Positions 8,972 through 24,000 of a stretch of DNA of 24,000 nucleotides are shown piece by piece. The position numbers and the translations under genes are program-made. Numbering within the stretch: the stretch's first letter is position 1; each line of letters starts with the position of its first letter. Location of the stretch: assembly GCA_045119835.1 (NCBI GenBank), contig JBGVED010000022.1:27646-51645 (forward strand), read 5' to 3'. The stretch is from Bacilli bacterium (GTDB lineage Bacteria > Bacillota_I > Bacilli_A > RFN20 > DUOF01). The notes beneath the pieces are model-generated. The model was given only the letters and a program-made list of their open reading frames with translations. It had not been told where the DNA came from and did no database searches.

Positions 8972-9001
8972 TAATTAAATGTCCGATCATTATTATTTAT
9001 T

Positions 9002-9043: not shown

Positions 9044-9056
9044 CTTCTTCTATACT

Positions 9057-9235: not shown

Positions 9236-9260
9236 TTATGAAGGTACCTATTTATTGATA

Positions 9261-9352: not shown

Positions 9353-9411
9353 ACATACTAGCATGATTGGATCAATGGGCAACGTCCCACCACATGCATT
9401 GGAGGTATGTT

Positions 9412-10122
9412 ATGATGAAAACTAAAAGATATGAATGTACAGGTGAAGGTGTAGTGCGCCTTATGAAACAACATAATGTTTCTGAGGTAACACTAATCTC
9501 TAAATACCTATGTCGTTGTATTAAAACTACTACTCGTTCTATTGAGTACTTCGATTTAAGAAGTTTTTCTTGGTACGATGTAACTGTTAATATATATAGC
9601 AATGGGTATACTGAGATACATGTATTCAACAACTTAGATACTAAGTGTGAAATATGTGCTCCTGCTGTACAATACTGTGATGAATTACCTAAACCTATAG
9701 GGTTCGATAATAGATACTACTTCCATGGAACTATGGCTTATAACCATTGTACTTTAGAAGAGGGTGTACAAAGAATCCTAGATGTTAAGGATAACTCATC
9801 ATGGCAAATATGCTGCTCTACAAGACACCTTGGACCATGTGGAATCATAGTAAAAGGTGATGTCATAGCAGTGTCTAATATCGATCTATGCTCTGATATA
9901 GACGATAATGGACGCAGATACTATGATGCACGTCATTGGAGAGCAAATAGTATGGTCTATAGTCTTAAAGACATAGACAATACTAAGTGGCATCACAACG
10001 AAATAATTGTGAAAGACCACTATATAGCAGCTCTATGGGTGAGTAGAGACGCACCTGTAGCAGTTATTACAGCTATCGAAGATTTGGCTAAAAAGCTAAA
10101 TCTAAGATGGATGTATGTGTAA
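9412..10122 (+). CDS. Paralog-family protein 1 (236 aa), FHG...CST[RK]...NEII motif set (possible ART fold)
   Basis: ORF-track ORF trimmed to the ATG at 9412 (GGAGG 6 nt upstream). The C-terminal ~130 aa align by eye with the 11542..12039 protein: YFHGT / ICCSTRHLGPCGIIVKGDVIAVSNIDLCSDIDDNGRRYYD / NEIIVKD...LAKKLNL. Confidence 0.8.
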   Translation: MMKTKRYECTGEGVVRLMKQHNVSEVTLISKYLCRCIKTTTRSIEYFDLRSFSWYDVTVNIYSNGYTEIHVFNNLDTKCEICAPAVQYCDELPKPIGFDNRYYFHGTMAYNHCTLEEGVQRILDVKDNSSWQICCSTRHLGPCGIIVKGDVIAVSNIDLCSDIDDNGRRYYDARHWRANSMVYSLKDIDNTKWHHNEIIVKDHYIAALWVSRDAPVAVITAIEDLAKKLNLRWMYV

Positions 10123-10627
10123 TCCGTCAGTCCTGAGTAAGACTATAAACTACTCCCCTATATATATAGGGTATGTCTAATGCAGCCACCTATATGGTGC
10201 AGGTCACAAGCCCTGGTAAATGCAGAGTGGACATAGGAGTTAATGCTTCTCCTCTATCAAAAAGCTAACCTAACCAATTTAAAATGAGTCGGGCTGCCAA
10301 GGCCCCTTAAACTTGGCCAGTTGTCAGTACTGATAGTATGAACTGACTGGGTTTTGTTCTCAATTCTTTCCCATCAAAAAAGGAATTGTCTGCCTAATCA
10401 GGACCGACCAAGTCCCTAAACTGGCGGGTGTATAGCATTAGGCTATCCCCTATAACAAATGATAAAGGTGCATGAGATAGCTCTTCGGTTAGGGCTGGCA
10501 CTGTTCTTGGTTAGGTACCAGTACTACTACGATAGGTTGTGCCAGTGCCATACCGTCAATACATAAACCACATTGACATAGGGTTTAATGTGCTTATGTA
10601 TAAAATAAACTATATAGGGGTGTTTAT
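10123..10627 (+). ncRNA. Candidate large (~500 nt) structured non-coding RNA / GC-rich ORF-free island
   Basis: No ORF of 60 aa or more on either strand, and clearly more GC-rich than the flanking genes. Local helices: 10156-10171 (CCCTAT/ATAGGG), 10172-10177/10230-10235, 10294-10320 (CTGCCAAG/CTTGGCCAG with one bulge), 10324-10328/10342-10346 (TCAGT/ACTGA), 10392-10398/10437-10443 (GCCTAAT/ATTAGGC) enclosing GGAC/GTCC, 10496-10503/10543-10550 (TGGCACTG/CAGTGCCA), 10555-10560/10572-10577 (GTCAAT/ATTGAC). Strand inferred from neighbouring genes. Confidence 0.4.
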
Positions 10628-11416
10628 ATGTATAACAAATTAAGATCTGTAATATTATTAGCTTATAAAAAAGAGATATGTAGAAGAGAAATACTAGATT
10701 GTGATGCTAGAGAAGACATAGAAAATGATATAAATGATATCATAGAATCTAGTTTACGCAATTATGTAGATCAAAGTGAACATTTCTCTAGACCTAAACG
10801 ATTAGTATATGACGATACTTGTGCTCCTATTAATGCTTATGGTTATTATATGCATATGATAGATCTAATAACATTAGATGAAAATTTAAGATGTTTTTAT
10901 TCAATGGCTTCTCTTAATTTTCTTGAAACATTAAAAGTAAGCGTTAATACATTCTTACATGAACATCGTCATTGTCATCAATACAAAACTAACATGGATA
11001 TATTAAACCATCCACTATCTAATAAAAATAATCCTGAGTATGTATATGCAAATAGTCCTCTAGAATTAGATGCTAATAAATATGCAGATATGTATGAATT
11101 AGAAGCAGTAGAATGGATTATAGATAGTATAGAATCATGGTTTGATGTTAAATACACTAAAGATATAGTAGAAGCTGATATTAGAGATGATGTAAGAGCA
11201 GCTATAGAAAACTACTATAATAATTTACCTGAAGAAGAAATAGAAAATAGTTTAGCTGAAATGGAAGAAGAATTAGAAGAATACGAAATGACACAAGCTA
11301 TGTTATCTATGCTAGATGATGATGAAGAAGATGAAATAGAAGAAATAACAATAGATCCAGATGAAGACATAAAAGAATGGTTTAGACAATATGAAGAACA
11401 ATTTGGTGAATGGTAG
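10628..11416 (+). CDS. ImmA/IrrE-like (M78-type) HExxH zinc metallopeptidase with a hyper-acidic C-terminal tail (262 aa)
   Basis: AGGGGTG SD lies 5 nt upstream. HEHRH at aa 111-115, followed 31 aa later by E-L-D-A-N-K-Y-A, matching the family's HExxH...ExxANxFA signature. aa ~195-262 are Glu/Asp-rich and end in EEQFGEW. Confidence 0.6.
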   Translation: MYNKLRSVILLAYKKEICRREILDCDAREDIENDINDIIESSLRNYVDQSEHFSRPKRLVYDDTCAPINAYGYYMHMIDLITLDENLRCFYSMASLNFLETLKVSVNTFLHEHRHCHQYKTNMDILNHPLSNKNNPEYVYANSPLELDANKYADMYELEAVEWIIDSIESWFDVKYTKDIVEADIRDDVRAAIENYYNNLPEEEIENSLAEMEEELEEYEMTQAMLSMLDDDEEDEIEEITIDPDEDIKEWFRQYEEQFGEW

Positions 11417-11422
11417 TATATA

Positions 11423-11449
11423 GGGCTCATAATAATATGGGCCCTTTTT
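11423..11449 (+). terminator. Intrinsic terminator
   Basis: GGGCTCATA-ATAA-TATGGGCCC (9 bp with one G.U) followed by TTTTT, 7 nt after the stop. Confidence 0.75.
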
Positions 11450-11460
11450 ATGTTTTAAAT

Positions 11461-11519
11461 AATCTGTCCAGGTGTAGATGCCTGCTGATGAGTCTTTGCA
11501 AATTAAGACGAAACAGATT
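11461..11519 (+). promoter_or_regulatory. Structured 5' leader (three-way-junction-like) of the 11542 gene
   Basis: Closing stem AATCTGT/ACAGATT (11461-11467/11513-11519) encloses CAGG/CCTG (11469-11472/11481-11484) and GTCTT/AAGAC (11492-11496/11505-11509). Confidence 0.4.
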
Positions 11520-11541
11520 AAATATATTGGGAGGTTTTACT

Positions 11542-12039
11542 ATGAGTAAAATATATGTAAAAGATTATTATCAAATGAATAAAGGATTATTTGAAAACTT
11601 TGAAGATAAAAAATTCTTTCATGGGTTTGGCGCATTCTTTGCGTCAAAAACACCATTAGAAAGAAAATTCACAAGATTAATAGAAGATACAAATGAAGAA
11701 TTCGAAATATGTACATCAACTAAAGCTTGCGGTATGAGTGGAGTCATAGTGCAAGGTAGAGTATTATTAGCTGCAAATTCTGATTTATGTTCAGGAATAA
11801 ATGCTAATGGTAGATACTTTGATTCTAAACAATTAGATGAATTAGTATTCGACTTTAATGATTTAGAATTATGGGAGGATGATTGCGAAGAAAATAATGA
11901 AATCATCCTAGATCATGTACAAGTAGTAGGTATATGGTATTGTGAAGATGCTAACAACAATGTTAAAGCTTTATGTAAACGTTTAGCTGAATTATATAAT
12001 CTACCATTAATAAATGCTGGTCTAAGCATATTTAATTAA
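11542..12039 (+). CDS. Paralog-family protein 2 (165 aa), FHG...CTSTK...NEII motif set
   Basis: GGGAGG lies 7 nt upstream of the ATG at 11542. The track's upstream extension from 11410 overlaps the terminator and leader. Alignable with the 9412 protein: FFHGF / ICTSTKACGMSGVIVQGRVLLAANSDLCSGINANGRYFD / NEIILDH...LAELYNL. Confidence 0.8.
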   Translation: MSKIYVKDYYQMNKGLFENFEDKKFFHGFGAFFASKTPLERKFTRLIEDTNEEFEICTSTKACGMSGVIVQGRVLLAANSDLCSGINANGRYFDSKQLDELVFDFNDLELWEDDCEENNEIILDHVQVVGIWYCEDANNNVKALCKRLAELYNLPLINAGLSIFN

Positions 12040-12064
12040 GAGCTCTAATTATTAGGGCTCTTTT
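12038..12064 (+). terminator. Intrinsic terminator overlapping the stop codon
   Basis: AAGAGCTC-TAATTATTA-GGGCTCTT (8 bp with one G.U) followed by TT. Confidence 0.6.
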
Positions 12065-12077
12065 ACATCTTTGTTTA

Positions 12078-12167
12078 ATATTTCTATAGTTTTTTTATTT
12101 TTTTTACTATTTGTTCAAACGAGAGCGCACCTAAGTACTCTCTATTTTTACATATAACTAAAGATAA
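12078..12167 (+). promoter_or_regulatory. Cassette intergenic repeat, copy 1 (promoter-like block)
   Basis: ATTTCTATAGTTTTTTTATTTTTTTTAC...CGAGAGCGCACCT...TTTACATATAACTAAAGATAAA. Shared almost verbatim with 12799-12887 and partly with 13580-13650. CGAGAGCGC core at 12120-12128. Confidence 0.5.
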
Positions 12168-12208
12168 ATAATTAAAATAAAATAATTATTATTACAGGGG
12201 GTTTAGTT

Positions 12209-12769
12209 ATGAGTAAAAAATTAAATAAAATGGTATCTAGTGGTTTAATAATAACAACTGTATTATCAAGTACAACAACTAAAGTTGAAGCAGATGCAGC
12301 AGCAGTATTAGAAATAGCAAATGAAACAGCTATGGTATGTCCATATGTGGCACCACTAGTAGTAACAGGCTCATTAGTAGTGACTGGTATCACTACTATA
12401 ATTGGTATTAAAAATAACAATACAGAAGAATATATCTATCGTAGTTATAGTCATCTTCCAGATCACTGGAAGAAGAATACTTGGGTTGAAAAACTTAACC
12501 CAAACGGTAGGGTGATTCAGCGTAGATATTATGGATCTGATGGTCTTCCAGTTGTTGATTATGATTTAACTCACCATGGTTTCCCAGAGGATCATCCTAA
12601 AAACTTCGGTGGAGCTCATAAACATTTATATAATAATCAAGCTAGAAGAATAAAAGATAGAAGACAAAAGGGTATTGAAATGACTCAAGAAGAATACGAC
12701 AAGTATATAAAAAACTTTAATGAATACGCAGAAAAAATGAAGGTTAGATATATAGAGGATGCTAAATAG
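12209..12769 (+). CDS. Membrane/secreted protein with a His-rich C-terminal motif (186 aa)
   Basis: AGGGGG SD. N-terminal hydrophobic segments (GLIITTVLSS; VAPLVVTGSLVVTGITTIIGI). C-terminal IQRRYYGSDGLPVVDYDLTHHGFPEDHPKNFGGAHKHLY aligns with the 18053..18439 protein. Confidence 0.8.
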   Translation: MSKKLNKMVSSGLIITTVLSSTTTKVEADAAAVLEIANETAMVCPYVAPLVVTGSLVVTGITTIIGIKNNNTEEYIYRSYSHLPDHWKKNTWVEKLNPNGRVIQRRYYGSDGLPVVDYDLTHHGFPEDHPKNFGGAHKHLYNNQARRIKDRRQKGIEMTQEEYDKYIKNFNEYAEKMKVRYIEDAK

Positions 12770-12787
12770 TAGCATCCTTTCTTTGTA
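12754..12787 (+). terminator. Intrinsic terminator with the stop codon in its loop
   Basis: AGGATGCTA-AATAG-TAGCATCCT followed by TTCTTT. The TAG stop (12767-12769) is in the loop. Confidence 0.65.
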
Positions 12788-12798
12788 TTCCTATGATT

Positions 12799-12887
12799 AT
12801 ATTTCTATAGTTTTTTTATTTTTTTTACATGTTGTACACTCGAGAGCGCACCTTATTGTGCTCTCATTTACATATAACTAATGATAA
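12799..12887 (+). promoter_or_regulatory. Cassette intergenic repeat, copy 2
   Basis: Same block as copy 1. CGAGAGCGC at 12841-12849, inside hairpin GAGAGC/GCTCTC. TTTACATATAACTAATGATAAA follows. Confidence 0.5.
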
Positions 12888-12927
12888 AACAATGTAGAGA
12901 ATAATAAATTATAAAGGGGATATAGAT

Positions 12928-13557
12928 ATGAGTAAAAAAGATATAGAAAGATTAAAAAATATGAAGAAACAAAATAATATGAAGAATCAAATGACTAGAC
13001 AAGAAAAAATACAAAGTATAGAAAATTTAGAAAAGAAATTAGCTGACATGTTTAATCAACGTAGTGAAGAAGAATTAAGAAGTATAATAGAAAGACACAA
13101 AAGAAATCAATCAGTTATATATTTTAACGATCATGACAAAGCATTTCAATTTTTAAGAAATAATGATTATAGTGTAGACATATTAGGTACAGTAAGTGAA
13201 GTTAGCAAAATAAGAAATGTAAATGGTGTAAGAACTATGTGTCTAGAAAATATATATATGGTAGCTGTTGAAAATGATAACGTTTGTATATGCGTTGACC
13301 ATATATGGATGAATGAAGAATTATCATGGACAATACTAAAGAATATATTGAAATATCCTGGTAAGGCTGGATATGAAATATTTATCAATAGATTAAAGCC
13401 AATAAAATATACAGAAGAATATTACAACAATGGAGTTGAAAAACACAGATATCAATTAACACAATTAACTAAAAAGAAAAGAATTGCTTGGGTTCAAAAA
13501 GTACAAAGAGCCAATGGAATAACAATGTCAGTAGAAAAAATAGCAGAAATATTATAG
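12928..13557 (+). CDS. Hypothetical protein, basic coiled N-terminus (209 aa)
   Basis: AAGGGGA SD lies 7 nt upstream. No recognised motif. Confidence 0.8.
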   Translation: MSKKDIERLKNMKKQNNMKNQMTRQEKIQSIENLEKKLADMFNQRSEEELRSIIERHKRNQSVIYFNDHDKAFQFLRNNDYSVDILGTVSEVSKIRNVNGVRTMCLENIYMVAVENDNVCICVDHIWMNEELSWTILKNILKYPGKAGYEIFINRLKPIKYTEEYYNNGVEKHRYQLTQLTKKKRIAWVQKVQRANGITMSVEKIAEIL

Positions 13558-13584
13558 GGTCCTTTATTTTAAGGACTCTTTTTC
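13558..13584 (+). terminator. Intrinsic terminator
   Basis: GGTCCTT-TATTTT-AAGGACT (7 bp with one G.U) followed by CTTTTTC. Confidence 0.6.
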
Positions 13585-13650
13585 TATTTTTATAGTTTTT
13601 TTATTTTTTTTACATGGTGCGCACTCGAGAGCGCATCTAATTACATATTC
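13580..13650 (+). promoter_or_regulatory. Cassette intergenic repeat, copy 3 (diverged 3' half)
   Basis: TTTTTATAGTTTTTTTATTTTTTTTACA, then the near-palindrome GCGCACTCGAGAGCGC (CGAGAGCGC at 13626-13634), then TTACATATTCA. Confidence 0.45.
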
Positions 13651-13755
13651 ATGGACCAATCCATGTGAGGTCCTTAAATAACATCATGGAACCCGATCCA
13701 GTTTTTAATGTGGGGGTTGTCTGTCATCCCATCCCAAAAACAGTCAAATACCAAT

Positions 13756-13806
13756 ATGGGGTTAGGGTTGAACCTCGGTCAAAAACCCATGTGTAGTCTT
13801 ACACAT
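13756..13806 (+). promoter_or_regulatory. Conserved two-hairpin leader motif, copy 1 (upstream of the polymerase gene)
   Basis: ATGGGGTTA-GGGTT-GAACCTCGGTCAAA-AACCC-ATGTG-TAGTCTTA-CACAT. Paralogous to 15942-15992, with compensatory changes in both stems. AAGGAGGG SD and the ATG follow within 25 nt. Confidence 0.6.
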
Positions 13807-13828
13807 TAGCTCAAGGAGGGCAAATATC

Positions 13829-15808
13829 ATGTCAATGAATAACAGTAAATTAAGAGGAATATCAAAAGGATTTGGAAGCAACAAATTACTAAGACAAAAG
13901 ATAAACGAAGCTATATATGCAACAAGTGTAGTAGTTAACAAAATAGAATTAAGCTACAACAAAGAAACAAAAGAATATGAAATAACTAAAGACGTTAGAG
14001 GATTAGCAGTATGGAATCCTGTATTTGAAAGATTTGGCTTAAACAGAGACTATCAAAAGATGAATGTAACAGTAGAAGCAGAAGATGACAATGGAAACAC
14101 AACTAAACGTAAAGTTAATATAGACGGTGAATCAGTAGTTATGTGTGACAGCATAATGTTCATCAAATGTGATAACCTTAAACAAATAGCTAAAATGGAC
14201 GAAGAAGGATTCGTATATAATGGTGAATTATATAGAGTACTAGGTGCTTCTCCTTCTCAACAAAAACACGCAGTTAAAGCTTATTTTAAAGTGACTAATG
14301 AATTCCCAACTGAAAAACATGCATTCTTAGCTATGGACGAAGTAAGTGGTTTTGTCTTTACTAAGGGTATATTCAGAAACAAAGTATCTGGACAAAAAGT
14401 TATTGCTGCCAATACAAGATTTGGTAACTATTTAACAGGTATGCAATGCTTAGCTAAAATAGACTTATCAAAAGATTATATAGTTATAGTTGACGGAAGC
14501 ATACCAGGAGCATATGATTTTGACGAACAAACTAGAGAAGAAATGGAAGCTAAAGGACTTGAATTTGACTGCAACATCAATGATGGAGCTTTACACTTTG
14601 GTGTTCCAACAATACAAGAAATAGGACAAAATGTAGGTGTTAGTTTAACAGAAGAAGATGCATTAAGAGTTGCTTTACAATCAAGAATAACTTATATAAC
14701 AGCTAAAGTTATGGGTGACTGTATGCCAGAAAATCAATTATTACAAATGGCAGCACTTCCTAATGCAGTTAAATATGGAAACACAAACGGAAGATTAATG
14801 TTAGTATGCGATACAGATGGAGCAAAAGCTTTAGCAGTTCCTGAATTAGAAAACGGTACAGCTGTATTAGATGTATACGTTATGGCTCAAGCTGCGGTTT
14901 CTGAACCAAAAAGTTCAGGACAACATTTAATCAAATATATGGCAGTTGCTCCAGAAAGAACATTAGAATTCATAAACACAGTGACTACTGAAAATTTAGA
15001 AGCATATGTTATGAATCAAGTAGCAGAAGGTAAAGGTTCTACAGTTGTTGACGATATAAAAAGAGCTCTTGGAGAAGATGCTTTCACAACTAAGATATTT
15101 GTAGAAGGTATATACAGAGATGCTTTCAAGTTTGTACAATCAGCTATAGCTAAAACTAAATTATCTATAGAAGCAGTATATAGCCATATGACATTTGATA
15201 GTACTTTTGTATTAACTAAAGGATTAATCAGAGGTATACTAGACATAACTAATGAAGGTTTTGTACAAGCATTCTGTCCAGACGTATTAAGAAAATATGC
15301 TAAAGAAATAGCTGCTATAGAAAATGATCCAACATTAACAGAAAGAGAAAAAGAAGTAAAATTATTTAACTTACTATCTGGTACAGTTATAAAATACCCT
15401 TCTGCAGGAACAAAAGAATTTGAAATCATAGTTTATCAAACTATGAAACAAATAGAAACATCTATAAAATCTAGAGTTGCAGAACTAGGATTAGACAATA
15501 AGGATGCAGAAGCTATGGTAGATATGTTATTAGCATATTTTGAAAATAGACCATATGGAACAACTACTTTTGCACCATTAAACGCATTAAAAAACAAGTT
15601 GGCGGGAGCCGACTGTGATTTTGATGCTACTATGACAGATATGAGTGAATTAAAACACATCCTTATAGAGAAAAGATTAGAAGAACAAGAAAAACAACCT
15701 GGATTTATGGGGGATTGTACTTTTATCAGCTATAAAGATGTACCAAGAACAGAAGATAAAAATGTTGTTGAAGATACTTTAGGAAACACTGATGATATAG
15801 AATGGTAG
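13829..15808 (+). CDS. Compact two-barrel RNA polymerase, RdRP/QDE-1/YonO-like (659 aa)
   Basis: The CDS itself is near-certain (strong SD, terminator). The function call rests on an ordered motif series: GELYRVLGASPSQQKHAVKAYF (aa 132-153), ANTRFGN (194-200), NDGALHFG (251-258), LQSRITYITAKV (283-294), IKYPSAGTKEFEII (521-534), LAGADCDFD (591-599; DxDxD, DNA 15611-15625). C-terminal tail EDTLGNTDDIEW. Confidence 0.6.
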   Translation: MSMNNSKLRGISKGFGSNKLLRQKINEAIYATSVVVNKIELSYNKETKEYEITKDVRGLAVWNPVFERFGLNRDYQKMNVTVEAEDDNGNTTKRKVNIDGESVVMCDSIMFIKCDNLKQIAKMDEEGFVYNGELYRVLGASPSQQKHAVKAYFKVTNEFPTEKHAFLAMDEVSGFVFTKGIFRNKVSGQKVIAANTRFGNYLTGMQCLAKIDLSKDYIVIVDGSIPGAYDFDEQTREEMEAKGLEFDCNINDGALHFGVPTIQEIGQNVGVSLTEEDALRVALQSRITYITAKVMGDCMPENQLLQMAALPNAVKYGNTNGRLMLVCDTDGAKALAVPELENGTAVLDVYVMAQAAVSEPKSSGQHLIKYMAVAPERTLEFINTVTTENLEAYVMNQVAEGKGSTVVDDIKRALGEDAFTTKIFVEGIYRDAFKFVQSAIAKTKLSIEAVYSHMTFDSTFVLTKGLIRGILDITNEGFVQAFCPDVLRKYAKEIAAIENDPTLTEREKEVKLFNLLSGTVIKYPSAGTKEFEIIVYQTMKQIETSIKSRVAELGLDNKDAEAMVDMLLAYFENRPYGTTTFAPLNALKNKLAGADCDFDATMTDMSELKHILIEKRLEEQEKQPGFMGDCTFISYKDVPRTEDKNVVEDTLGNTDDIEW

Positions 15809-15815
15809 TATTTAT

Positions 15816-15842
15816 GGGCTCAGTTTATGCTGGGCCCTTTTT
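15816..15842 (+). terminator. Intrinsic terminator (paralogous to the one at 11423)
   Basis: GGGCTCAG-TTTATG-CTGGGCCC (8 bp with one G.U) followed by TTTTT. Confidence 0.75.
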
Positions 15843-15843
15843 A

Positions 15844-15870
15844 TATATCTATGTATAATGCATAGATATA
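15844..15870. promoter_or_regulatory. 10-bp inverted repeat with TATAAT in the loop
   Basis: TATATCTATG-TATAATG-CATAGATATA, immediately after the terminator. Candidate -10 box embedded in an operator-like palindrome. Confidence 0.4.
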
Positions 15871-15941
15871 ATGGGAGCTAAATAATCGGCAGCCTCCTCG
15901 TTGGCGCTCCTGGATATCCAACCAATGCCGTAAATACTATT

Positions 15942-15992
15942 ATGGGGTTAGGGCTGAACCTCGGTCAAAAGCCCGTGCATAGTCTTATGCAC
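15942..15992 (+). promoter_or_regulatory. Conserved two-hairpin leader motif, copy 2
   Basis: ATGGGGTTA-GGGCT-GAACCTCGGTCAAA-AGCCC-GTGCA-TAGTCTTA-TGCAC, followed by the AGGAGGG SD and the ATG at 16018. Confidence 0.6.
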
Positions 15993-16017
15993 TTTGCCTA
16001 TAGGAGGGCGTATATAT

Positions 16018-17655
16018 ATGAAATCAACAAACTCATTAAACAATGTAAAAATGAACAGAAGAGATACTTTATTACAAAAAGTATATGACGGAACTATAAG
16101 CTTAAAAGATTTAAGACAAATGGAAAATATAGACATGAACCAATGTCAATATCCAATTAGGGTTTTACAAAAAGTGTTTAACCCTATATCACTTGTAGGG
16201 CCTACTACAACTGTAGTAGGTAACATCATAAATATAGATGTAGATGACCCTCAAGGATTTGAAGAATTCAAAGATGCTCTATTATTACTAAACGATGAAG
16301 GTACTCATACACCATATGGAGAATCAATATGGAAAATAGGTAAAAACGTATTCTGTGGTTATAAATTCTATAATCATAAATTCTACGTTTATTATCAAGT
16401 AACTAATGCTGAAATGGCTGAAATCGAAAGAAAAATAAAAGGTATGAGAAGAAGCGAAATGACAGTGGAAGATGCTAAACAATTACAAAAAGATTTAGAC
16501 TCTGTACTTCGTGGATGGCAAGAATCTAGTATTGACGTTCACAAAGATGAAAAGAAATCATTCTCATATGATTTCAGACACTTCTTTAAGAAAGTAGATG
16601 TAGTGTCTAACTATTGTAAAACACATGCCGATAAAATAGAAATGAATACAAAAGAAATGTTTAAAGACCATAAGAAAGTTGATTCTAAAGAATTCAAAAT
16701 AACATTACCAAGCGATAATCCATTAGGTGACGATGTAGTATGTAAAGACTTAATAGGTAGAGTAACAGAAGAAATAAGAAAAGCTGCTGAAACATTCTTT
16801 AACGGCGACTTAAAAGATATATATGCAATGAGTAATATGGATGCTTTCTTACCATTTGTAGGTTATGCTCAAGCTAATCCAGAATTAGCATTATTCATAA
16901 AAGATATATATCAAATATGCTACAACGCTATAGGAAAAGAAACAATAGAAAAAGAACAATATGCTTTACTAAGAAATGTTGTATATTCTAAAGCTTTAGA
17001 TCTAGGTGTTGAATTCCAAGATGTAGTTAAAGTAGCTATAGACTGTGCAATGGTATCTGTTAAAGAAACTAAAGAAGGTATAGAAGTTACAAACTCTGAC
17101 GTTAACAGATTTAAACTATATCCAATAGTTAATATGTTTGGTAAAGAGTTTAAAGTAGCTATGACTAACCAACCTTATATGGAGACAATAGCAACAGAAG
17201 ATGATTTCTTAGTATTTGACAGATTTATAAAAGATAACGAAGAAATAGAATTCGTTAATGGTAAATCAACTGATGATAAATTAGTTATGATAAACGATTT
17301 CACAGGAACAGCTGTAGAATGTAATGGTGTATTAGTAGCTGAAACTAATGTTTATGCATTTGAAGAAGTAAAAGCTATGATAGTATTCAAAACATTCGAC
17401 GCAAAAGCAACTCCAAAACAAGCTATATATGATAAAACTGGTGCTTTATTAGACAGCTTAATTGAAGAAAACAATTTTGCAGGTATGAGAGTAACAGGTA
17501 AAAATAACAATGGTTTAAGAAACAACACTAACTTAATAGGTGTATTTAGAAGTACTTGTGCATTTGTTAAAGATGAAATAGTTGAACCAACAGATATAAT
17601 AGCATATGATCCAAAACCTGCTAGCCAAAAACTATTCTTAATTATCTGTAAATAA
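16018..17655 (+). CDS. Hypothetical 545-aa protein sharing its leader motif with the polymerase gene
   Basis: ORF-track ORF trimmed to the ATG at 16018 (AGGAGGG 9 nt upstream). No motif recognised. Same leader motif as the polymerase gene. Confidence 0.85.
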   Translation: MKSTNSLNNVKMNRRDTLLQKVYDGTISLKDLRQMENIDMNQCQYPIRVLQKVFNPISLVGPTTTVVGNIINIDVDDPQGFEEFKDALLLLNDEGTHTPYGESIWKIGKNVFCGYKFYNHKFYVYYQVTNAEMAEIERKIKGMRRSEMTVEDAKQLQKDLDSVLRGWQESSIDVHKDEKKSFSYDFRHFFKKVDVVSNYCKTHADKIEMNTKEMFKDHKKVDSKEFKITLPSDNPLGDDVVCKDLIGRVTEEIRKAAETFFNGDLKDIYAMSNMDAFLPFVGYAQANPELALFIKDIYQICYNAIGKETIEKEQYALLRNVVYSKALDLGVEFQDVVKVAIDCAMVSVKETKEGIEVTNSDVNRFKLYPIVNMFGKEFKVAMTNQPYMETIATEDDFLVFDRFIKDNEEIEFVNGKSTDDKLVMINDFTGTAVECNGVLVAETNVYAFEEVKAMIVFKTFDAKATPKQAIYDKTGALLDSLIEENNFAGMRVTGKNNNGLRNNTNLIGVFRSTCAFVKDEIVEPTDIIAYDPKPASQKLFLIICK

Positions 17656-17670
17656 TTATACAGAACCAGG

Positions 17671-17705
17671 GAGCATCAACCAGTTTAGGTTGGTGCTCTT
17701 CTATT
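17671..17705 (+). terminator. Intrinsic terminator
   Basis: GAGCATCAACC-AGTTTA-GGTTGGTGCTC (11 bp with one G.U) followed by TTCTATT. Confidence 0.7.
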
Positions 17706-17723
17706 GTGTATAATTATACACAA
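17704..17723. promoter_or_regulatory. Perfect 20-bp palindrome TTGTGTATAATTATACACAA centred on TATAAT
   Basis: Read directly. About 30 nt upstream of the ATG at 17754. Candidate -10 box within an operator. Confidence 0.45.
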
Positions 17724-17753
17724 AATAAATATAATAGAAAGGATTTGGTAATA

Positions 17754-18041
17754 ATGAATTACAAAACATTATTAAAAATATGTACAGAAAGGAAGTATAA
17801 AGATATGACTTATGATGAATTTATAATGGACATAATATGTGGCCATGAATTTATATGTGAATTAGACGGAATTGTGTTCAAAATTTTAAACATAAAAGAA
17901 GGGTTTTATACTATACGTTTAGGTGATAAAAGATACGATATATCAGAAGAAGAAGATATAGAAGAATATACTATATATCATAACATGACATTAAAAGAAT
18001 TAATGAATAAAAATATGATCAAAATAAAAGAAACATATTAG
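17754..18041 (+). CDS. Hypothetical protein (95 aa)
   Basis: ORF-track ORF trimmed to the ATG at 17754 (GAAAGGA about 10 nt upstream). The track's GTG start lies inside the palindrome. Confidence 0.7.
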   Translation: MNYKTLLKICTERKYKDMTYDEFIMDIICGHEFICELDGIVFKILNIKEGFYTIRLGDKRYDISEEEDIEEYTIYHNMTLKELMNKNMIKIKETY

Positions 18042-18052
18042 GAGGAAGACAA

Positions 18053-18439
18053 ATGAATAAATTACTTAATAAGACCATTGCTATATGCAAGGTCTTTTTT
18101 AATGTATTGGATAGCGTAGAAAAACTACCAGAATACGAACCAAAATATGCTGATAAATTAGTATTAAAAATTCATCCAAAGGGACACCACATGCAAATAA
18201 GAAAATATAAGAACAACGGTCGTGCTGAATATGATATAGACTTACACGATCATGATGAAGATAAAGAATATACTCATGGAGGTATTCATATTCATTATTT
18301 TGGATGGAGATATATTAAAAAACTTAATGAAAATAAATATGTAAGGTTAACTGGAAGAAATTTAACAGATGAAGAATATGAATTTTTACAAAATATAGAC
18401 TATAGAAATTTAATACAAATACAAGTAAGATATGAATAA
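18053..18439 (+). CDS. His-rich-motif protein (128 aa), paralogous domain to 12209..12769
   Basis: AGGAGG lies 7 nt upstream. MQIRKYKNNGRAEYDIDLHDHDEDKEYTHGGIHIHYF aligns with IQRRYYGSDGLPVVDYDLTHHGFPEDHPKNFGGAHKHLY. Confidence 0.8.
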   Translation: MNKLLNKTIAICKVFFNVLDSVEKLPEYEPKYADKLVLKIHPKGHHMQIRKYKNNGRAEYDIDLHDHDEDKEYTHGGIHIHYFGWRYIKKLNENKYVRLTGRNLTDEEYEFLQNIDYRNLIQIQVRYE

Positions 18440-18488
18440 AAAAATTATGGGTTATGCTTTATCCCTGAAAAGCTAGAAAGGATATACT

Positions 18489-19211
18489 ATGAAAACTACT
18501 ATAATGCAAATAATAAAATCAAACGAAAGATACAATGTTATACCAAAACTATATGAAATATTAACTGATAAATATGGCAAATTAACAATTGCTGGTGGAG
18601 CAATTATTGATTGCTTCTATGACAAACCATTTTATGATGTTGATTGTTTTATTAACATCAAAGATTTAAAACCAGAATGGAAACAAAAACTACACATAAG
18701 AAAAGATACTCATGTACTTGATGTATTAAGAGACAATATAGATGGCTTTGACATTGACATAGTTGTAATAGACTATTCAGTAGCAAAACACATCCGTCGT
18801 TTTGACCAACGCTTCAAGCAAGCTTGGTATGATGACAAAGGTCTTCACATGACTAAAGGAGCAGCAAAAGATATAACTGACAATAAAGTAAGAGTAGGTG
18901 TTTTAAATGGCCCTGCTATATACTTTAGAGTAATCCGTTCAGCTAGAAAATATGGTATGCATCTTGATGATACAGACATGTGGCTAATGGAAAACTTTAT
19001 GTCTTGCCTAGATAAATTAAGACTACCTAAGAAATATCAACACATGAAAAGAGAATTCTTACCTTATAAGAATCCTGACAAATTACTAGGAGAAATAGTA
19101 TATAAATACTCACAAAACTACTGGAATACTAAATTATTATACGCACCAAGCTGGACAACATTAAAATTATTCTTATTACCAGCAATAATAAAACACAACA
19201 GAAATAAATAG
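18489..19211 (+). CDS. Pol-beta-superfamily nucleotidyltransferase (CCA-adding/poly(A)-polymerase-like head), 240 aa
   Basis: IAGGAIIDCFYDKPFYDVDCFI fits hG[GS]-x(9-13)-Dh[DE]h. A further acidic strand is FDIDIVVID. RRFDQRF is reminiscent of the RRDFT motif of class II CCA-adding enzymes. Confidence 0.55.
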   Translation: MKTTIMQIIKSNERYNVIPKLYEILTDKYGKLTIAGGAIIDCFYDKPFYDVDCFINIKDLKPEWKQKLHIRKDTHVLDVLRDNIDGFDIDIVVIDYSVAKHIRRFDQRFKQAWYDDKGLHMTKGAAKDITDNKVRVGVLNGPAIYFRVIRSARKYGMHLDDTDMWLMENFMSCLDKLRLPKKYQHMKREFLPYKNPDKLLGEIVYKYSQNYWNTKLLYAPSWTTLKLFLLPAIIKHNRNK

Positions 19212-19220
19212 GTAGAGAAC

Positions 19221-19262
19221 ATACCCATCAGTATATCTGCAGTATATTGGTGGGTATTTCTG
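19221..19262 (+). terminator. Intrinsic terminator, 15-bp stem
   Basis: ATACCCATCAGTATA-TCTGCAG-TATATTGGTGGGTAT. Two G.U pairs form only in the plus-sense RNA. Followed by TTCTGTGT. Confidence 0.6.
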
Positions 19263-19318
19263 TGTCTATTTATAGGCACAAATAAAATAGTCCTTGAGAC
19301 TTTAAACTGGAGGAATAC

Positions 19319-19993
19319 ATGAAAAAATTATTTATGAGAACTTTAAAAATAACATCTTCTATGATTATATTCACTGTAGCATTTTTTTGTTTTTCAGTAT
19401 GTTGTTGTTGTATAAGTGTGATAACAGACGATACACCAGAACCTATTCAAGAAACAACAAATTATGATGAAGAATTAGCTGAAATAAAAGAACAATATGA
19501 GCAACAAATAGCTGAATTAAATAATACTATAGAAACAAAAGATGAAGAAATAAATAATTTAAAACAACAAATGGACGAACAAAATGAAATAATATTTGAC
19601 AAACAAGAAGAAATATATGAATTAGAAAATCAATTAGAAACAACTAATAATAACTATTATATTTCTCATGATGAATATATAGCTGGAAACGACAGTGATA
19701 ATGATGGAGATAATCAATATGATAATGAATATGCTGATCCTGACAGAATATATATAGACGAAAACGGCAACATCATTTATGACGATCATAATAATTATAA
19801 TTATCCATCTTATGATGTAGACGATAATGAATCTTCAAATTATGGAGATTATTATATTGCAAGAGGAAATAGTTATTATCATAATAGTCCAAACTGCAAA
19901 TATTTACAAGGAGCAGATACAGACAGAGTGACTGAAGAAGAGGCTATATCAAATGGCAAACATGAATGCAACTGCGTTAAATATGGTTATTAA
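19319..19993 (+). CDS. Membrane-anchored coiled-coil protein with a C-terminal YH..C...CxC zinc-ribbon-like motif (224 aa)
   Basis: N-terminal TM segment with a CCCC run (IIFTVAFFCFSVCCCCISV), a coiled coil, an Asp/Asn/Tyr-rich low-complexity region, and a C-terminus YYHNSPNCKYL...EEEAISNGKHECNCV. Confidence 0.8.
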   Translation: MKKLFMRTLKITSSMIIFTVAFFCFSVCCCCISVITDDTPEPIQETTNYDEELAEIKEQYEQQIAELNNTIETKDEEINNLKQQMDEQNEIIFDKQEEIYELENQLETTNNNYYISHDEYIAGNDSDNDGDNQYDNEYADPDRIYIDENGNIIYDDHNNYNYPSYDVDDNESSNYGDYYIARGNSYYHNSPNCKYLQGADTDRVTEEEAISNGKHECNCVKYGY

Positions 19994-20053
19994 AATAAAT
20001 TATTAATTTAAAAAAATATATGGGTGGCGACCGGCGCTAGAAGGAGATTTACC

Positions 20054-21133
20054 ATGAAAAAATATGAATTAGAAATGCAAATACAAAAACAAATGGAAGA
20101 ATTACAAAATAAAGAAACTGAATTACAAAATCAAAAAACTGAAGATAGAAAAACAGTAGAACAATTATGTAGCGAATGGAATTGGACATTATCAGATAAA
20201 GAAGCAACAATAGTTAAAGAAGTAGTAGTAGACAATACAGATACAGCAACAATAGAAATGCTTAGAGAAACAATAAGACAAATGAATCAAACAATAAATG
20301 ATATGAATAAAGAACAAGATGAACTATACAAATTATATTTAGAAGAACAAAGAGAAAAAGAAATATGGGCTGCTGCACATGCCGAACTAAAAGAAGTATA
20401 TGAACAACAAATGATAGATATGACATCTGAGTTCGAATTACAATTAGATGAATTAAATAAAAAATACTCTGCATTAGACAGTGAAAATGAACAATTAGAT
20501 AGAGAGATCCATGTATTAACAGGGCAAGTTGCAGGGTATGAAGCACAATTAACTAACAAGGATATAAAAATAGAATCATTAGAAAAACAAATAGCAGATG
20601 CTAAAGAAGATAAAGTAAGAGCTGAAATAATAAAAACAAAAAGTGGAGCAACAATAGAAGTAGTTGACGATCCTGATTATAATGACGTACCAGAAGAAAA
20701 ACCTGTAACTAATAATAAACCAATGAATAATCCAATAAGCTTAACTTATACTTCTTTACACGTAACTCATGATGCAATAAAAGCAATAGCACACGATAAA
20801 GCTAATGGTGTAACATTCCATTTCGTATGGAAAGCTGGACAAGAAAAACTTCCATGTTTTAGTGCAACAGGAGCTAGAGGAACTTGGAGCAGAATGAATG
20901 GTGCAGGTATGTATCGTTATGGTAAACAAATAGTTGAAGATTTCAAACAACTAGCAGAAGAAAAAATAATAAGCAAAACTAAAGATGGCAAAGTAAAAAC
21001 AACTAAAGCTAATAAACCAAACAAACCTGAAGATAAACCTGTAGTTAAAGTAACAAAAGAAGTTGCAGTAGAAACTAATGATGATCCACTTGGAAACACT
21101 GATGATATGGAGTTTGACTGCTATGACTGCTAG
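20054..21133 (+). CDS. Coiled-coil protein with the shared acidic-aromatic C-terminal peptide (359 aa)
   Basis: ORF-track ORF trimmed to the ATG at 20054 (AAGGAG 7 nt upstream). Long coiled coil, a basic Lys/Pro linker, and C-terminus NDDPLGNTDDMEFDCYDC. Confidence 0.8.
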   Translation: MKKYELEMQIQKQMEELQNKETELQNQKTEDRKTVEQLCSEWNWTLSDKEATIVKEVVVDNTDTATIEMLRETIRQMNQTINDMNKEQDELYKLYLEEQREKEIWAAAHAELKEVYEQQMIDMTSEFELQLDELNKKYSALDSENEQLDREIHVLTGQVAGYEAQLTNKDIKIESLEKQIADAKEDKVRAEIIKTKSGATIEVVDDPDYNDVPEEKPVTNNKPMNNPISLTYTSLHVTHDAIKAIAHDKANGVTFHFVWKAGQEKLPCFSATGARGTWSRMNGAGMYRYGKQIVEDFKQLAEEKIISKTKDGKVKTTKANKPNKPEDKPVVKVTKEVAVETNDDPLGNTDDMEFDCYDC

Positions 21134-21770
21134 GGAGGCAGGGGCACATACTTTCACACGAGAGCGCCAAAATTTCCCCCCTTCGGGGGAGATGGCTCCA
21201 CCCTTCGGGCTCGCCCCTCACGGGTCAGGCTCCGCTCCGCTACGCGGAACCTTCGGTTCCACGTGCTCCGCTCCGCAAAAGACAAAACCCAGCTCCGCTA
21301 CGCTGCGCGAAACCTTCGGTTTCACTCAGCTTCGCTCCGCAAAAGACAAAAGCATCGCTCACTACGTTCGCTCACACAAAGGCGTTTGTAATGAGTGTGT
21401 GCTCGCATGCGCTCGCACAAAAGACAAAAACCACAAAAGACAAAGCCTTGCACAAAGGCGTGCTTTATGGTGTTACGCCCACATGTACTGCCCCCTTCGG
21501 GGCCAGTGCCATGGGGCTAACGCTGCACAGGGCACTCAAACAACGAGTGCCTTGCACAAAGGCGTGTTTTATGATAGAGCATGCTCACTGCGTTCGCACA
21601 AAAGCGTTCGTAGTGCGTCTAGCGCGCTTGCGCTTGCACAAAGGCGTGTTCTATGGAAATACGTCTTGCTTATGCAGTCAGTATGTATGGCATTAACGAG
21701 TGCCATAACTGGTCGTGTATACGACATTGACGAGCGCCACACAAAGGCGTGATTTATGATTTTAAAAAAA
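21134..21770 (+). other. GC-rich repeat- and hairpin-dense non-coding island (structured RNA array, promoter/terminator array or replication origin)
   Basis: CACAAAGGCGTG at 21451, 21555, 21637 and 21740 (plus CACAAAGGCGTT at 21375), each followed by NTT(T/C)TATG(G/A). AAAAGACAAA at 21277, 21341, 21419 and 21435. CCTTCGG-centred hairpins at 21177-21189, 21246-21260, 21309-21323 and 21487-21507. Further hairpins at 21686-21707 and 21712-21725. CGAGAGCGC core at 21159-21167. Ends in an A/T tract (21755-21775). Confidence 0.5.
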
Positions 21771-21781
21771 ATTTATTAGGT

Positions 21782-21801
21782 TGTAGGTCGTCGTGCCTAC
21801 A
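21782..21801 (+). promoter_or_regulatory. TCGTCGTG-loop hairpin, copy 1 (leader of the 21820 gene)
   Basis: TGTAGG-TCGTCGTG-CCTACA, preceded by TTAGGT and followed by GGAAATAGGGGT (SD) and the ATG. Confidence 0.55.
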
Positions 21802-21819
21802 GGAAATAGGGGTATAACC

Positions 21820-22497
21820 ATGAAAAATATAGTATTAGTAGCAATGAACAATGTAAGTGTAGCAGTAGTAGCTAATAAAGGACAAAATCAATATAAAGCA
21901 GTTCAAGCTAACAACAGCAAAATAGCATTATTAACTAACTTAAAAACAGTATTATCAGGAATACCAACTAATGATGATTTATCAGCAGAAACAAGACAAA
22001 TTATAATAGGAAGCAAATCTCCAATAATCGGTTTAGTAACAGGTACTTGGAGAGAATATATAAAAACAGGTAAAAACGCTAAAGGCGTAGAAATAGCAGA
22101 AGAAGAATTAGCATTATGGAAACAAGTAGCAGAATTATATGCTAACCGTTGCTTTAATGTTAAATTTACTAGCGACCAATATATAGGCAAAAACGATAAA
22201 GCTACAAAAGACTTAATCAACGTATCTTGGGAATTAGTTAAACAAGAAGTTAGAAAAGCTAATGATATGGCTCAACCAACTCAACCTAAAGTTGCTCAAT
22301 CAGCTCCAGCAGTTAATCCAGTTGTAGCTAAATTACAAGAGCTTATGACTAAAGCATTAGATGAAGGTGACTTCGAAGCTTATGATAAATTAGAAGAAAG
22401 ATTAAACAAATTACAACCAGCTAAAGAAGTTGCAGAAGAACCAGTTAATAATGATCCACTAGAAGGTGCAGAAGAAATGGAATTTGACGCTGAATAA
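21820..22497 (+). CDS. 225-aa protein with an acidic-aromatic C-terminal tail (speculative SSB-like or hub-binding role)
   Basis: ORF-track ORF trimmed to the ATG at 21820 (AGGGG 7 nt upstream). C-terminus NNDPLEGAEEMEFDAE. No fold recognisable by eye. Confidence 0.75.
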   Translation: MKNIVLVAMNNVSVAVVANKGQNQYKAVQANNSKIALLTNLKTVLSGIPTNDDLSAETRQIIIGSKSPIIGLVTGTWREYIKTGKNAKGVEIAEEELALWKQVAELYANRCFNVKFTSDQYIGKNDKATKDLINVSWELVKQEVRKANDMAQPTQPKVAQSAPAVNPVVAKLQELMTKALDEGDFEAYDKLEERLNKLQPAKEVAEEPVNNDPLEGAEEMEFDAE

Positions 22498-22515
22498 TTT
22501 CTAGTAAATTGGCTC

Positions 22516-22549
22516 TTGTGAGTTCGGCCGTAAACTGAAACTCTCACAA
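22516..22549 (+). terminator. Weak hairpin after the 21820 gene
   Basis: TTGTGAG(20-nt loop containing CGGCCG)CTCACAA, followed by an A-rich rather than U-rich tract. Low-confidence terminator. Confidence 0.3.
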
Positions 22550-22564
22550 AATAATTAATTAGGT

Positions 22565-22584
22565 GATAAGTCGTCGTGCTTATC
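22565..22584 (+). promoter_or_regulatory. TCGTCGTG-loop hairpin, copy 2 (leader of the 22604 gene)
   Basis: GATAAG-TCGTCGTG-CTTATC, preceded by TTAGGT and followed by GGAATCAAGGGTG (SD) and the ATG. Confidence 0.55.
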
Positions 22585-22603
22585 GGAATCAAGGGTGATT
22601 AAT

Positions 22604-23407
22604 ATGATGAATCAAATATGTGGAAACAAATTACAAGTTGAAAGCTTAGTTAATACAGTATTTTCTCAAGTATGTGTATTTGCAGAAGAAGAACAAGTAT
22701 TTGCTAGCTTCGAAACAATAGAAGTTGACGATAATACTGTTATGTTAAAATGGGATACAGATAACTTAACTCCAGAAGCTCAATGCATGCTAAACACAGC
22801 TTTATATTACAGATTCCAAGACAAAACTTTATCAAGTGAATTACAAATAGAACATGCTATAGAAAAACCTCTAGAAAATCACATCAGAATCATGTGTAAC
22901 ATCGACAAATATGAAGAAATCGTTGAAGACTACTGTGTATATAACAACATTCCTCAAGCTCATTTTACAGCTTTAATGTATCCTTTATCATTAACTATGG
23001 CAGTAAATAAAGCAGAAGTTATAATGATAAACTTAACTGATGAACAAATGGCAGTTATAAATCGCCAAGGAAAAACTCAAGTTAAAGCTAATGCAATCCA
23101 TGCAAAAGTTAATAACATTGGTACAGCTTTACACACAACTTCTAAAGTGGCTATGAAAGACGTTGTTAACCCATTAGCAGTTAATACTGCAAAAGTTGGT
23201 GCAACTGTTGTTTCTGGTTTAGCTACAACTGCATTAGACTGTGGTATGGCAGTAGCTAATGAAGTACTAAGAGACGTTGCTAAATTCTCTTTATCAGAAG
23301 TTAAAAAGAGAGATGAAGTACAAACTATGAAATATAGCATAAGAAAAATATTAAACAAAACTAATAAACCAACACAAAAACAACAAGCTAACAACTTCAA
23401 CTTATAG
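22604..23407 (+). CDS. Hypothetical protein (267 aa)
   Basis: ORF-track ORF trimmed to the ATG at 22604 (AAGGGTG SD; the track's GTG start lies inside it). No motif recognised. Confidence 0.8.
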   Translation: MMNQICGNKLQVESLVNTVFSQVCVFAEEEQVFASFETIEVDDNTVMLKWDTDNLTPEAQCMLNTALYYRFQDKTLSSELQIEHAIEKPLENHIRIMCNIDKYEEIVEDYCVYNNIPQAHFTALMYPLSLTMAVNKAEVIMINLTDEQMAVINRQGKTQVKANAIHAKVNNIGTALHTTSKVAMKDVVNPLAVNTAKVGATVVSGLATTALDCGMAVANEVLRDVAKFSLSEVKKRDEVQTMKYSIRKILNKTNKPTQKQQANNFNL

Positions 23408-23414
23408 GATAAAT

Positions 23415-23440
23415 GCAGGGGCCACAAACCCCTGCTTATT
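23415..23440 (+). terminator. Intrinsic terminator
   Basis: GCAGGGG-CCACAAA-CCCCTGC followed by TTATTAA (a weak U-tract). Confidence 0.55.
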
Positions 23441-23520
23441 AACATAAGCACAAAAGCGTTCTTCTTGAATCATTAGCTATGCACAAAAACAACAAATTAA
23501 AATTTATAGGAGGTATCCTT

Positions 23521-23745
23521 ATGAGATTAAATAATGATATGTTACAAGCAATACAAGCTATATTTGACAAAAGAAATGATTACTGGTTCATAGACAAAAC
23601 TAAAGATGTAGATGATGACTACTATGAATTCTGTTTGTCAGCTGAGTCTATCTTAGAAGCTTGGGACATACTAAAGTTTGACAGAGACAGATATGATTAC
23701 GTAGCAGGTCCAGAAGGACACGACGACGATTGGATATTCGAATAA
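23521..23745 (+). CDS. Small acidic protein (74 aa)
   Basis: AGGAGG lies 7 nt upstream of the ATG at 23521. Asp/Glu/Trp/Tyr-rich, ending in GHDDDWIFE. Confidence 0.75.
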   Translation: MRLNNDMLQAIQAIFDKRNDYWFIDKTKDVDDDYYEFCLSAESILEAWDILKFDRDRYDYVAGPEGHDDDWIFE

Positions 23746-23749
23746 TAAT

Positions 23750-23915
23750 ATCAGCGCGAGGCCGAAGGCCGAGCGCGTCTTCCCTTTTGAAAGGGATTGA
23801 GGGTTAGGCGCCGAGCGTATAGCGAGGCGCAATAACACATATGATAAACTATAAGCTAGACTTATAGGTTGAACGAGGCGAGCGTAAGCGAGCCGAGTGA
23901 AAAGGCACTCTCACA
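23750..23915 (+). other. GC-rich intergenic segment with GAGCG/GCGAG mirror-type repeats and hairpins
   Basis: GCGAGGCCGAAGGCCGAGCG (inner GGCC-GAA-GGCC hairpin), CCCTT-TTGA-AAGGG hairpin, GCGCC-GAGCGTATAGCGA-GGCGC hairpin, GGCGAGCGTAAGCGAGCC, GAGTG-AAAAGG-CACTC hairpin. Confidence 0.35.
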
Positions 23916-23923
23916 TTTTGAGC

Positions 23924-23994
23924 AAAAGTTTAGTATAACTAGTCCTATACTAGAAGTTTTAGAACACAACTGTGATAAAAGTTTAGTATAACTA
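23924..23994. repeat. Direct repeat AAAAGTTTAGTATAACTA x2 (53-bp spacing)
   Basis: Exact 18-mers at 23924-23941 and 23977-23994. The array may continue past the window end. Confidence 0.6.
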
Positions 23995-24000
23995 AACATA

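Follow-up and report, generated by a model that had tools for sequence, protein, structure and literature searches.

In a 24-kb stretch of phage-like bacterial DNA (hereafter the window; coordinates count from its first letter) two neighbouring genes on the + strand, gene A (225 aa) and gene B (267 aa), are each preceded by a short hairpin that carries the loop TCGTCGTG. The pattern of sequence change among relatives shows that this hairpin is an RNA element of both 5' leaders, the stem of which is kept by compensatory change, and that purifying selection acts on the loop and on the GG that immediately precedes the stem. The hairpin is a regulatory RNA motif of a familiar kind that has not been described before. 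Tentatively, and with a confidence that falls a little short of even, we favour the reading that it is a loop-specific site for a trans-acting factor that co-regulates the translation or stability of A and B.

Sequence, conservation and folding strand of the hairpin

The two hairpins and their sequences had been put forward in an earlier reading of the window (the original prediction) and were recovered at the same positions when the window was read again. Hairpin A (21782-21801, +) is composed of the arms TGTAGG (21782-21787) and CCTACA (21796-21801) around the loop TCGTCGTG (21788-21795), and hairpin B (22565-22584, +) of the arms GATAAG (22565-22570) and CTTATC (22579-22584) around the same loop (22571-22578). 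Each stem can optionally be extended by a U-G pair (U21781-G21802 and U22564-G22585, respectively). The covariance model described below matches the two sites with 46.0 and 43.8 bits, and local RNA folding gives them -9.0 and -6.6 kcal/mol. Directly 5' of each stem lies the sequence TTAGGT (21776-21781 for A, 22559-22564 for B), preceded by an A/T-rich run. Alignment (G18 invariant, G19 at least 90%) and a weight-matrix scan identify this region as a generic leader part, an A/T-rich box with an invariant GG, at 21764-21781 (+; GG from 21779) for A and, supported in addition by the leader repeat, at 22548-22564 (+; GG at 22562-22563) for B. Downstream of the stem follow GGAAATAGGGGTATAACC and the ATG at 21820 for A, and GGAATCAAGGGTGATTAAT and the ATG at 22604 for B; the Shine-Dalgarno (SD) sequence together with the start codon spans 21808-21822 (+; SD AGGGG) and 22591-22606 (+; SD AAGGGTGAT), respectively. 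The end of hairpin A is 6 nt from the SD and 18 nt from the ATG, and hairpin B is likewise 6 nt from its SD and about 18 nt from its ATG.

Within the window the two leaders match each other over 49 nt as a repeat of 78% identity. The loop sequence occurs three times, against 0.11 expected (0 of 100 shuffles reached three); the third copy (23719-23726, minus strand) lies within coding sequence and has no stem. The stems had been called completely different and still complementary: the compensation is borne out, every change being matched by its partner, but the difference is partial, as 3 of the 6 pairs differ between A and B.

For the assessment of conservation we used 18 distinct leaders with the hairpin at A and/or B, taken from metagenomic relatives whose protein A is down to about 43% identical. 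The loop in these leaders reads [U17/C1] C G U C G [U11/A7] G. The claim of an invariant 8-nt loop therefore holds between A and B, where the loops are identical, but not across relatives, where positions 1 and 7 vary. The core CGUCG, the final loop G and the closing G-C pair did not change in any of the 18 leaders while protein A falls to about 43% identity. Because the single C at loop position 1 makes a C-G pair possible to position 8, and because RNA folding also pairs U1 with G8, the first and last loop bases probably pair, leaving a CGUCGW hexaloop. The loops of other simple leader hairpins change at comparable divergence, and those of neighbouring genes already at a far smaller one, whereas the TCGTCGWG loop does not.

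The stem (5-7 bp) changes freely and yet stays paired: all 18 leaders keep the inner five pairs (100%), while 5 of the 7 pairs have changed on both sides. In all, 89.7% of the cells form pairs; with the 3' partner slid out of place the figure is 26-42%. A covariation score of 0.66 was obtained (shuffles: 0.30), which 0 of 500 shuffles reached. The inner pairs contain seven G-U/U-G cells and no A-C cell; since the G-U pairs would be C-A mismatches on the other strand, it is the sense strand, i.e. the mRNA, that folds. The gene A leader of relative L010 illustrates this, for its stem, which contains two wobbles, forms as RNA but as DNA on neither strand. The two features expected of a structured cis-regulatory RNA in general, maintenance of pairs by compensatory change and folding of the sense strand, were thus both found, and the compensatory changes, the presence of G-U without A-C and the RNA-only fold of the L010 stem agree with the selected RNA hairpin that had been proposed. 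The same is true of its placement directly 5' of the SD: the gap between hairpin end and SD is nearly fixed at 4-7 nt in 18 of 18 leaders.

Distribution of the hairpin and exchange of leader modules

The window is phage-like: its 1173-aa protein matches tail-fibre and pre-neck-appendage families. Nearly all window proteins are without Pfam and PHROG matches, and an exact-protein look-up of A and B returned no record. Relatives, including those of protein A, were sought in GenBank phages (at the DNA and protein level), IMG/VR and GTDB genomes, and none were found there. Homologues were recovered from metagenome assemblies only: 55 clusters for protein A (98% to about 35% identity) and 36 for protein B, on contigs of up to 120-276 kb. 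Comparison of at least 25 related loci showed a kept gene order: genes for proteins of about 660 aa, about 550 aa, (240 aa) and about 330-420 aa, a G+C-rich non-coding region of about 650 bp, A and B.

A covariance model of the hairpin (R1) was run over the window and the related loci (212 kb plus 79 kb). It returned 35 matches with E < 3e-7, all of them in leaders of A or B and all on the + strand; the next best match had an E-value of at least 0.5. This search, which the original prediction had proposed as a check, therefore places two sites in each sampled genome region (about 290 kb of related DNA in all), at A and B only, in the roughly 30 kb that was sampled per genome. The idea that the 225-aa and 267-aa genes are marked as a separate regulon is in line with this result, the hairpin being confined to these two genes and different from the motif that precedes the 659-aa and 553-aa genes. 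No match to known RNA families was obtained in 21700-22650 (951 nt) with the covariance models of Rfam 15, including the RAGATH motifs, at E ≤ 10. A pattern scan of IMG/VR for TTAGGT-N-TCGTCGTG-N-GGAA gave four matches, none of which forms a hairpin and all of which are attributable to chance, and a literature search for the loop sequence returned primers and unrelated matches only.

In more distant relatives the leaders are of another type. The gene A leader of L013, L021, L023, L027, L029 and L033 contains a two-hairpin module, UCGYRYG-CGUGAAG-YRYRCGA followed by CUGGC-UUAGGACUGG-GCCAG, which covaries and has G-U pairs as well. The gene B leader has no hairpin in L013, L027, L029 and L033 (an A/T run, GGAGG and the ATG), has an unrelated hairpin, GCCG-UUUGUUAG-CGGC, in L021, and has the TCGTCGTG hairpin in L023, although gene A carries the two-hairpin module there. 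Protein A of L021 and L023 is 69-72% identical to that of the window, yet gene A has the other leader. Because these two relatives swap leaders at about 70% identity, the leader type does not track protein A, which weakens, as far as leader comparison can tell, a strict autoregulation by this protein. Relatives whose homologous leaders lack the hairpin had been named beforehand as evidence against the proposed reading; they do exist among the more distant ones (A swapped, B without hairpin), which counts in part against it. The hairpin is thus an exchangeable module, which is not obligatory for these genes.

The weight-matrix scan for the A/T box plus GG found this element on the + strand only, before A, B, the gene for a 240-aa nucleotidyltransferase-like protein (leader 18438-18488) and the 369-aa gene (leader 20010-20053), and each of these genes has its own, different hairpin before the SD. 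The general layout is therefore: A/U box, GG, structured module, 4-8 nt and SD, in which the module is gene- or gene-class-specific. The B leader contains a further element, an H-type pseudoknot between A and B (22510-22547, +; UGGC-UCUU-[GUGAGUU]-CGGCCGUAAACUGA-[AACUCUCAC]). It is situated right after the gene A stop codon, and its 5' UGGC pairs with GCCG in the conserved 14-nt loop (CGGCCGUAAACUGA). The pairing covaries in relatives (UGGC/GCCG, UGCC/GGCG, GGGC/GCCC and UGUC/GACA), and the pseudoknot is retained even where gene B is without hairpin.

Candidate functions of the hairpin

If the hairpin is a shared translational operator, the loop and the closing pair would be the recognition surface for a sequence-specific factor acting in trans, for which an RNA-binding protein encoded by the phage is the likeliest candidate. 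Since the stem-loop adjoins the 5' edge of the ribosome-binding site (RBS), a factor bound there would compete with binding of the 30S subunit, such that A and B would be repressed together; a coupled effect on mRNA stability may occur as well. A conserved complement to the loop was sought among relatives within -170 to +130 nt and none was found, so that the loop is not part of a local pseudoknot; the lack of a conserved partner in cis favours recognition in trans. Several observations weigh against an operator. A recognisable RNA-hairpin-binding domain was not seen in protein A, and the fold matches of protein B are uninformative. In the RNA fold the hairpin itself leaves the SD and ATG free, and any repression would thus rest wholly on the putative factor. 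The hairpin is dispensable in the lineage and L023 mixes modules, which suits a generic exchangeable leader and regulatory rewiring alike, and the about 30 kb sampled per relative come from genomes of at least 120 kb.

The proteins themselves were inspected for a possible role. Gene A (21820-22497, +) encodes an RNase H-like N-domain without the conserved DEDD acids, a C-terminal helical motif (NPVVAKLQELMTKALDEGDF...) and an acidic tail. In the structure model (predicted local distance difference test, pLDDT, 79; above 90 for the N-terminal 150 residues) the N-domain adopts the fold of type 1 RNase H; its matches lie in the range of about 1e-6 to 1e-7 (E. coli RNase HI, E about 3e-7; phage RNase H models, about 2e-7). 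Its invariant columns show no acidic residues at what we take, from our own reading against E. coli RNase HI, to be the first three catalytic positions, and the domain is probably non-catalytic, i.e. pseudo-nuclease-like. The helical motif is conserved as NPVVAKLQELMTKALDEGDFxxYDxLExRLN. Sequence searches with protein A, with the 659-aa protein and with the family profile of the latter against PDB, Pfam and PHROGs were empty. Gene B (22604-23407, +) encodes an N-terminal alpha/beta domain that was modelled with moderate confidence; its fold search gave no significant match, and weak ones to tandem ferredoxin-like folds only. An acidic C-terminal peptide is found in the 659-aa protein (15770-15808, ...LGNTDDIEW), the 369-aa protein (21076-21133, ...DPLGNTDDMEFDCYDC) and protein A (22446-22497, ...DPLEGAEEMEFDAE), and the likeness extends to the DNA (74%). 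Such a shared end suggests a common docking motif for one partner.

Of the systems compared, the closest is the operator of T4/RB69 gene 43 (DNA polymerase, gp43), a hairpin 5' of the RBS in which conserved bases of the loop, not the stem, carry specificity (PMC3014915). The likeness consists of a short hairpin that adjoins the RBS on its 5' side, before an early or replication-region phage gene, with a conserved loop, an arrangement seen in 18 of 18 leaders. The differences are that one hairpin type serves two genes, that the loop is unrelated and that gene A encodes an RNase H-fold protein and not a polymerase; an autoregulation like that of gp43 is made less likely by L021 and L023, whose gene A has another leader (protein A about 70% identical). 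The T4 single-stranded DNA-binding protein (SSB) gp32 has an acidic C-terminal tail, as protein A does, but according to the fold search protein A is not an SSB of the oligonucleotide-binding (OB) fold. The B leader resembles that of T4 gene 32 in opening with an H-type pseudoknot, behind which an A/U-rich stretch leads up to the RBS (PMC3014915). Unlike in gene 32, an extra conserved hairpin stands between the A/U region and the SD, and the pseudoknot precedes B, not the gene A that encodes the acidic tail. The RAGATH-type candidates of Rfam occur in a similar setting, phage-like DNA with intergenic twister and hammerhead ribozymes, but the hairpin matches none of them.

The hairpin might also work without any factor, as a protective or insulating structure at the 5' terminus: the mRNA would start, or be cut, at the GG of the A/U box, and the hairpin would shield this end from decay, in the manner of the pseudoknots, other hairpins and self-cleaving ribozymes of further intergenic regions of this phage. 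We regard this as the main rival of the operator, possible if on the unlikely side. It would account well for the succession of A/T box, GG, module and SD before several + strand genes with differing modules, for the swapping of modules among relatives and for the A/T-rich run that precedes the GG in every leader. Twister and hammerhead ribozymes are present in other intergenic regions, and ribozyme cleavage gives the downstream RNA a 5'-OH. A generic stabiliser, however, needs no conserved 8-nt loop, and here the loop is near-invariant while the stems turn over; the stability, moreover, is moderate (-6.6 to -9 kcal/mol). Loop specificity would be accommodated, as by an operator, by a hairpin-specific endoribonuclease that would separate the cistrons as a protein-dependent counterpart of the nearby ribozymes. 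The neighbouring ribozymes show that the phage processes its transcripts, and the fold of protein A is of a nuclease type (RNase H-like). Nevertheless protein A is without conserved catalytic acids at the expected positions by our own reading against E. coli RNase HI, and the searches with the window proteins recognised no Cas6-like or other hairpin nuclease; we give this possibility little probability.

A role at the level of transcription was considered in two forms. The A/T box and GG could be the promoter or start of a phage RNA polymerase, with the hairpin taking part in promoter recognition or acting as a single-stranded DNA signal (an origin or nick site). A GG after an A/T-rich run recalls the start sites of T7-type phage polymerases, and the origins of HUH nucleases combine a conserved loop with a variable stem. 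A scan for sigma-70-type promoters stayed at chance level (88 found, 82 expected), with nothing convincing before A or B, and the invariant ADxDFDA in the 659-aa protein could be the metal site of a polymerase. In this protein (13829-15808, +) KYPSAG and KNKLAGADxDFDATM are invariant across eight relatives, and we take them by eye to resemble RAPTLH and NADFDGD of RNA polymerase beta', but no match to the profile was obtained in PDB or Pfam, and the protein is at most a putative polymerase. The promoters of the N4 virion RNA polymerase have a stem of 5-7 bp and a 3-nt loop, the hairpin being formed on the template DNA strand. They are similar in standing before phage genes as short hairpins that vary in the stem and keep their central bases, but the loop is 8 nt here (6 if U1-G8 pairs) and it is the sense-strand RNA that folds, so that neither characteristic of N4 is found and the hairpin promoter once considered for these sites is contradicted, in its N4 form, by strand asymmetry and loop size. 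More generally, G-U pairs on the sense strand would become C-A mismatches on the template strand, the consensus stem of the L010 A leader does not form as DNA, and a role in DNA leaves the fixed SD spacing unexplained; a promoter-linked element is improbable in our view.

The second form is a site for processive antitermination of the nut/put type, in which the hairpin of the nascent RNA, with or without the help of a phage protein, would modify the polymerase for terminator read-through. Lambda nut boxB and HK022 put are small RNA stem-loops with a conserved loop that act in cis and are present in two copies per genome. Two copies per genome region and a conserved loop on a short stem are likewise seen here, and terminator-like hairpins are enriched after + strand genes (17 against 5 expected). 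The nut arrangement of a 5-bp boxB with a GNRA-like pentaloop and an upstream boxA is not found: the loop is UCGUCGWG, unlike the boxB pentaloops, and site A has no boxA-like sequence. The GCTCTT upstream of B only, which we presumed to be similar to a boxA core, lies within the pseudoknot, and as GCUCUU it is largely accounted for by pseudoknot pairing. Each copy, furthermore, stands before a single gene, and antitermination gives no reason for a constant 4-7 nt to the SD, which makes it very improbable.

Several other candidates were tried and rejected. The hairpins are no Rho-independent terminators: no U run follows them (GGAAAU, GGAAUC or AAAUAU does) and neither appears in the terminator scan. 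An upstream open reading frame (ORF) or N-terminal extension from a GTG in the loop is excluded, as 7 of 20 scanned loops end in GAG and thus have no start codon, and the remaining ones disagree in frame and stop position. The complement of the loop at 23719-23726 (CACGACGA) is coding (DDD codons), has no support in relatives and is considered a coincidence. Sites of the CsrA type (GGA), inspected by eye, were dismissed as GGA follows the hairpin in one clade only.

Other structured RNAs in the window

The leaders of the 659-aa gene and the 553-aa gene (16015-17655, +) share a module that spans 13757-13806 and 15943-15992 (+) and of which a simpler version is found at 18450-18475. It consists of a pseudoknot, GRGG-UUA-[P2]-..CCYC-GGYCAAAA-[P2'] (13757-13788 and 15943-15974, +), and a subsequent hairpin with a GUCU loop, and the pseudoknot covaries among relatives (GAGG/CCUC versus GGG/CCC). 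Its topology recalls the preQ1-I riboswitch; no Rfam model matches it, and Rfam gave no match to the neighbouring pseudoknots in general. Two intergenic ribozymes, the only families recognised by Rfam elsewhere in the window, are a twister-P1 (10174-10233, +; 63.8 bits, E 1.5e-12), just under the gathering score of 67.2, and a hammerhead III (11461-11519, +; 49.2 bits), above gathering. The latter follows a terminator-like hairpin (11422-11445) inside the called ORF 11410-12039, the true start of which is probably the ATG at 11542. In L010 a twister is located at 6913-6965 (+), in a different intergenic region from that of the window.

The non-coding region upstream of A (21134-21760, +; about 630 bp) has 41-51% G+C in a genome of 30% G+C, and its position is kept in all relatives. 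It contains five cUUCGg-type hairpins on the + strand (at 21176, 21198, 21246, 21309 and 21490) and five terminator-like units GCCUUGCACAAAGGCGUGYUUUAUG at distances of 76-104 nt, and GACGAGYGCCAYAC boxes recur in it. Probably the region gives rise to one large structured RNA or to an array of small ones, and it may be an origin of replication; ORF 21078-21752 and ORF 21391-21696 can almost certainly be dismissed as spurious. A further intergenic motif is shared by the 186-aa and 209-aa genes, upstream of which (12121-12142 and 12842-12865, +) lies a hairpin GAGAG(C)-loop-(G)CUCUC with (A)TTTACATATAACTAAWGATAAA behind it. The terminator-like hairpins counted above (9000-24000, +; 17 against 5.0 expected) follow most + strand genes (11422, 12754, 13556, 15816, 17669 and 19221), and could be terminators or 3'-end protective hairpins of processed RNAs.

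A more far-reaching view would take the leader cassettes (conserved-loop hairpin, two-hairpin module, preQ1-like pseudoknots and ribozymes) as one interchangeable post-transcriptional programme, each cassette being placed between the A/U box with its GG and the SD. The TCGTCGTG hairpin would then serve as operator for phage regulators of a new family that bind RNA by its loop, and A and B would be their regulon of two genes, possibly alongside a non-canonical RNA polymerase of the phage's own; as a whole we consider this speculative and unlikely. If a loop-specific factor exists, it and the hairpin would constitute a new operator pair of RNA and protein in a group of phages without cultured or annotated relatives, as well as a potential orthogonal regulatory part, and would provide a first handle on the timing of gene expression in the replication region of these phages. 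The wider pattern may outweigh the hairpin itself, as swappable leader modules together with ribozymes in nearly every intergenic region suggest a control of gene expression that is unusually centred on RNA.

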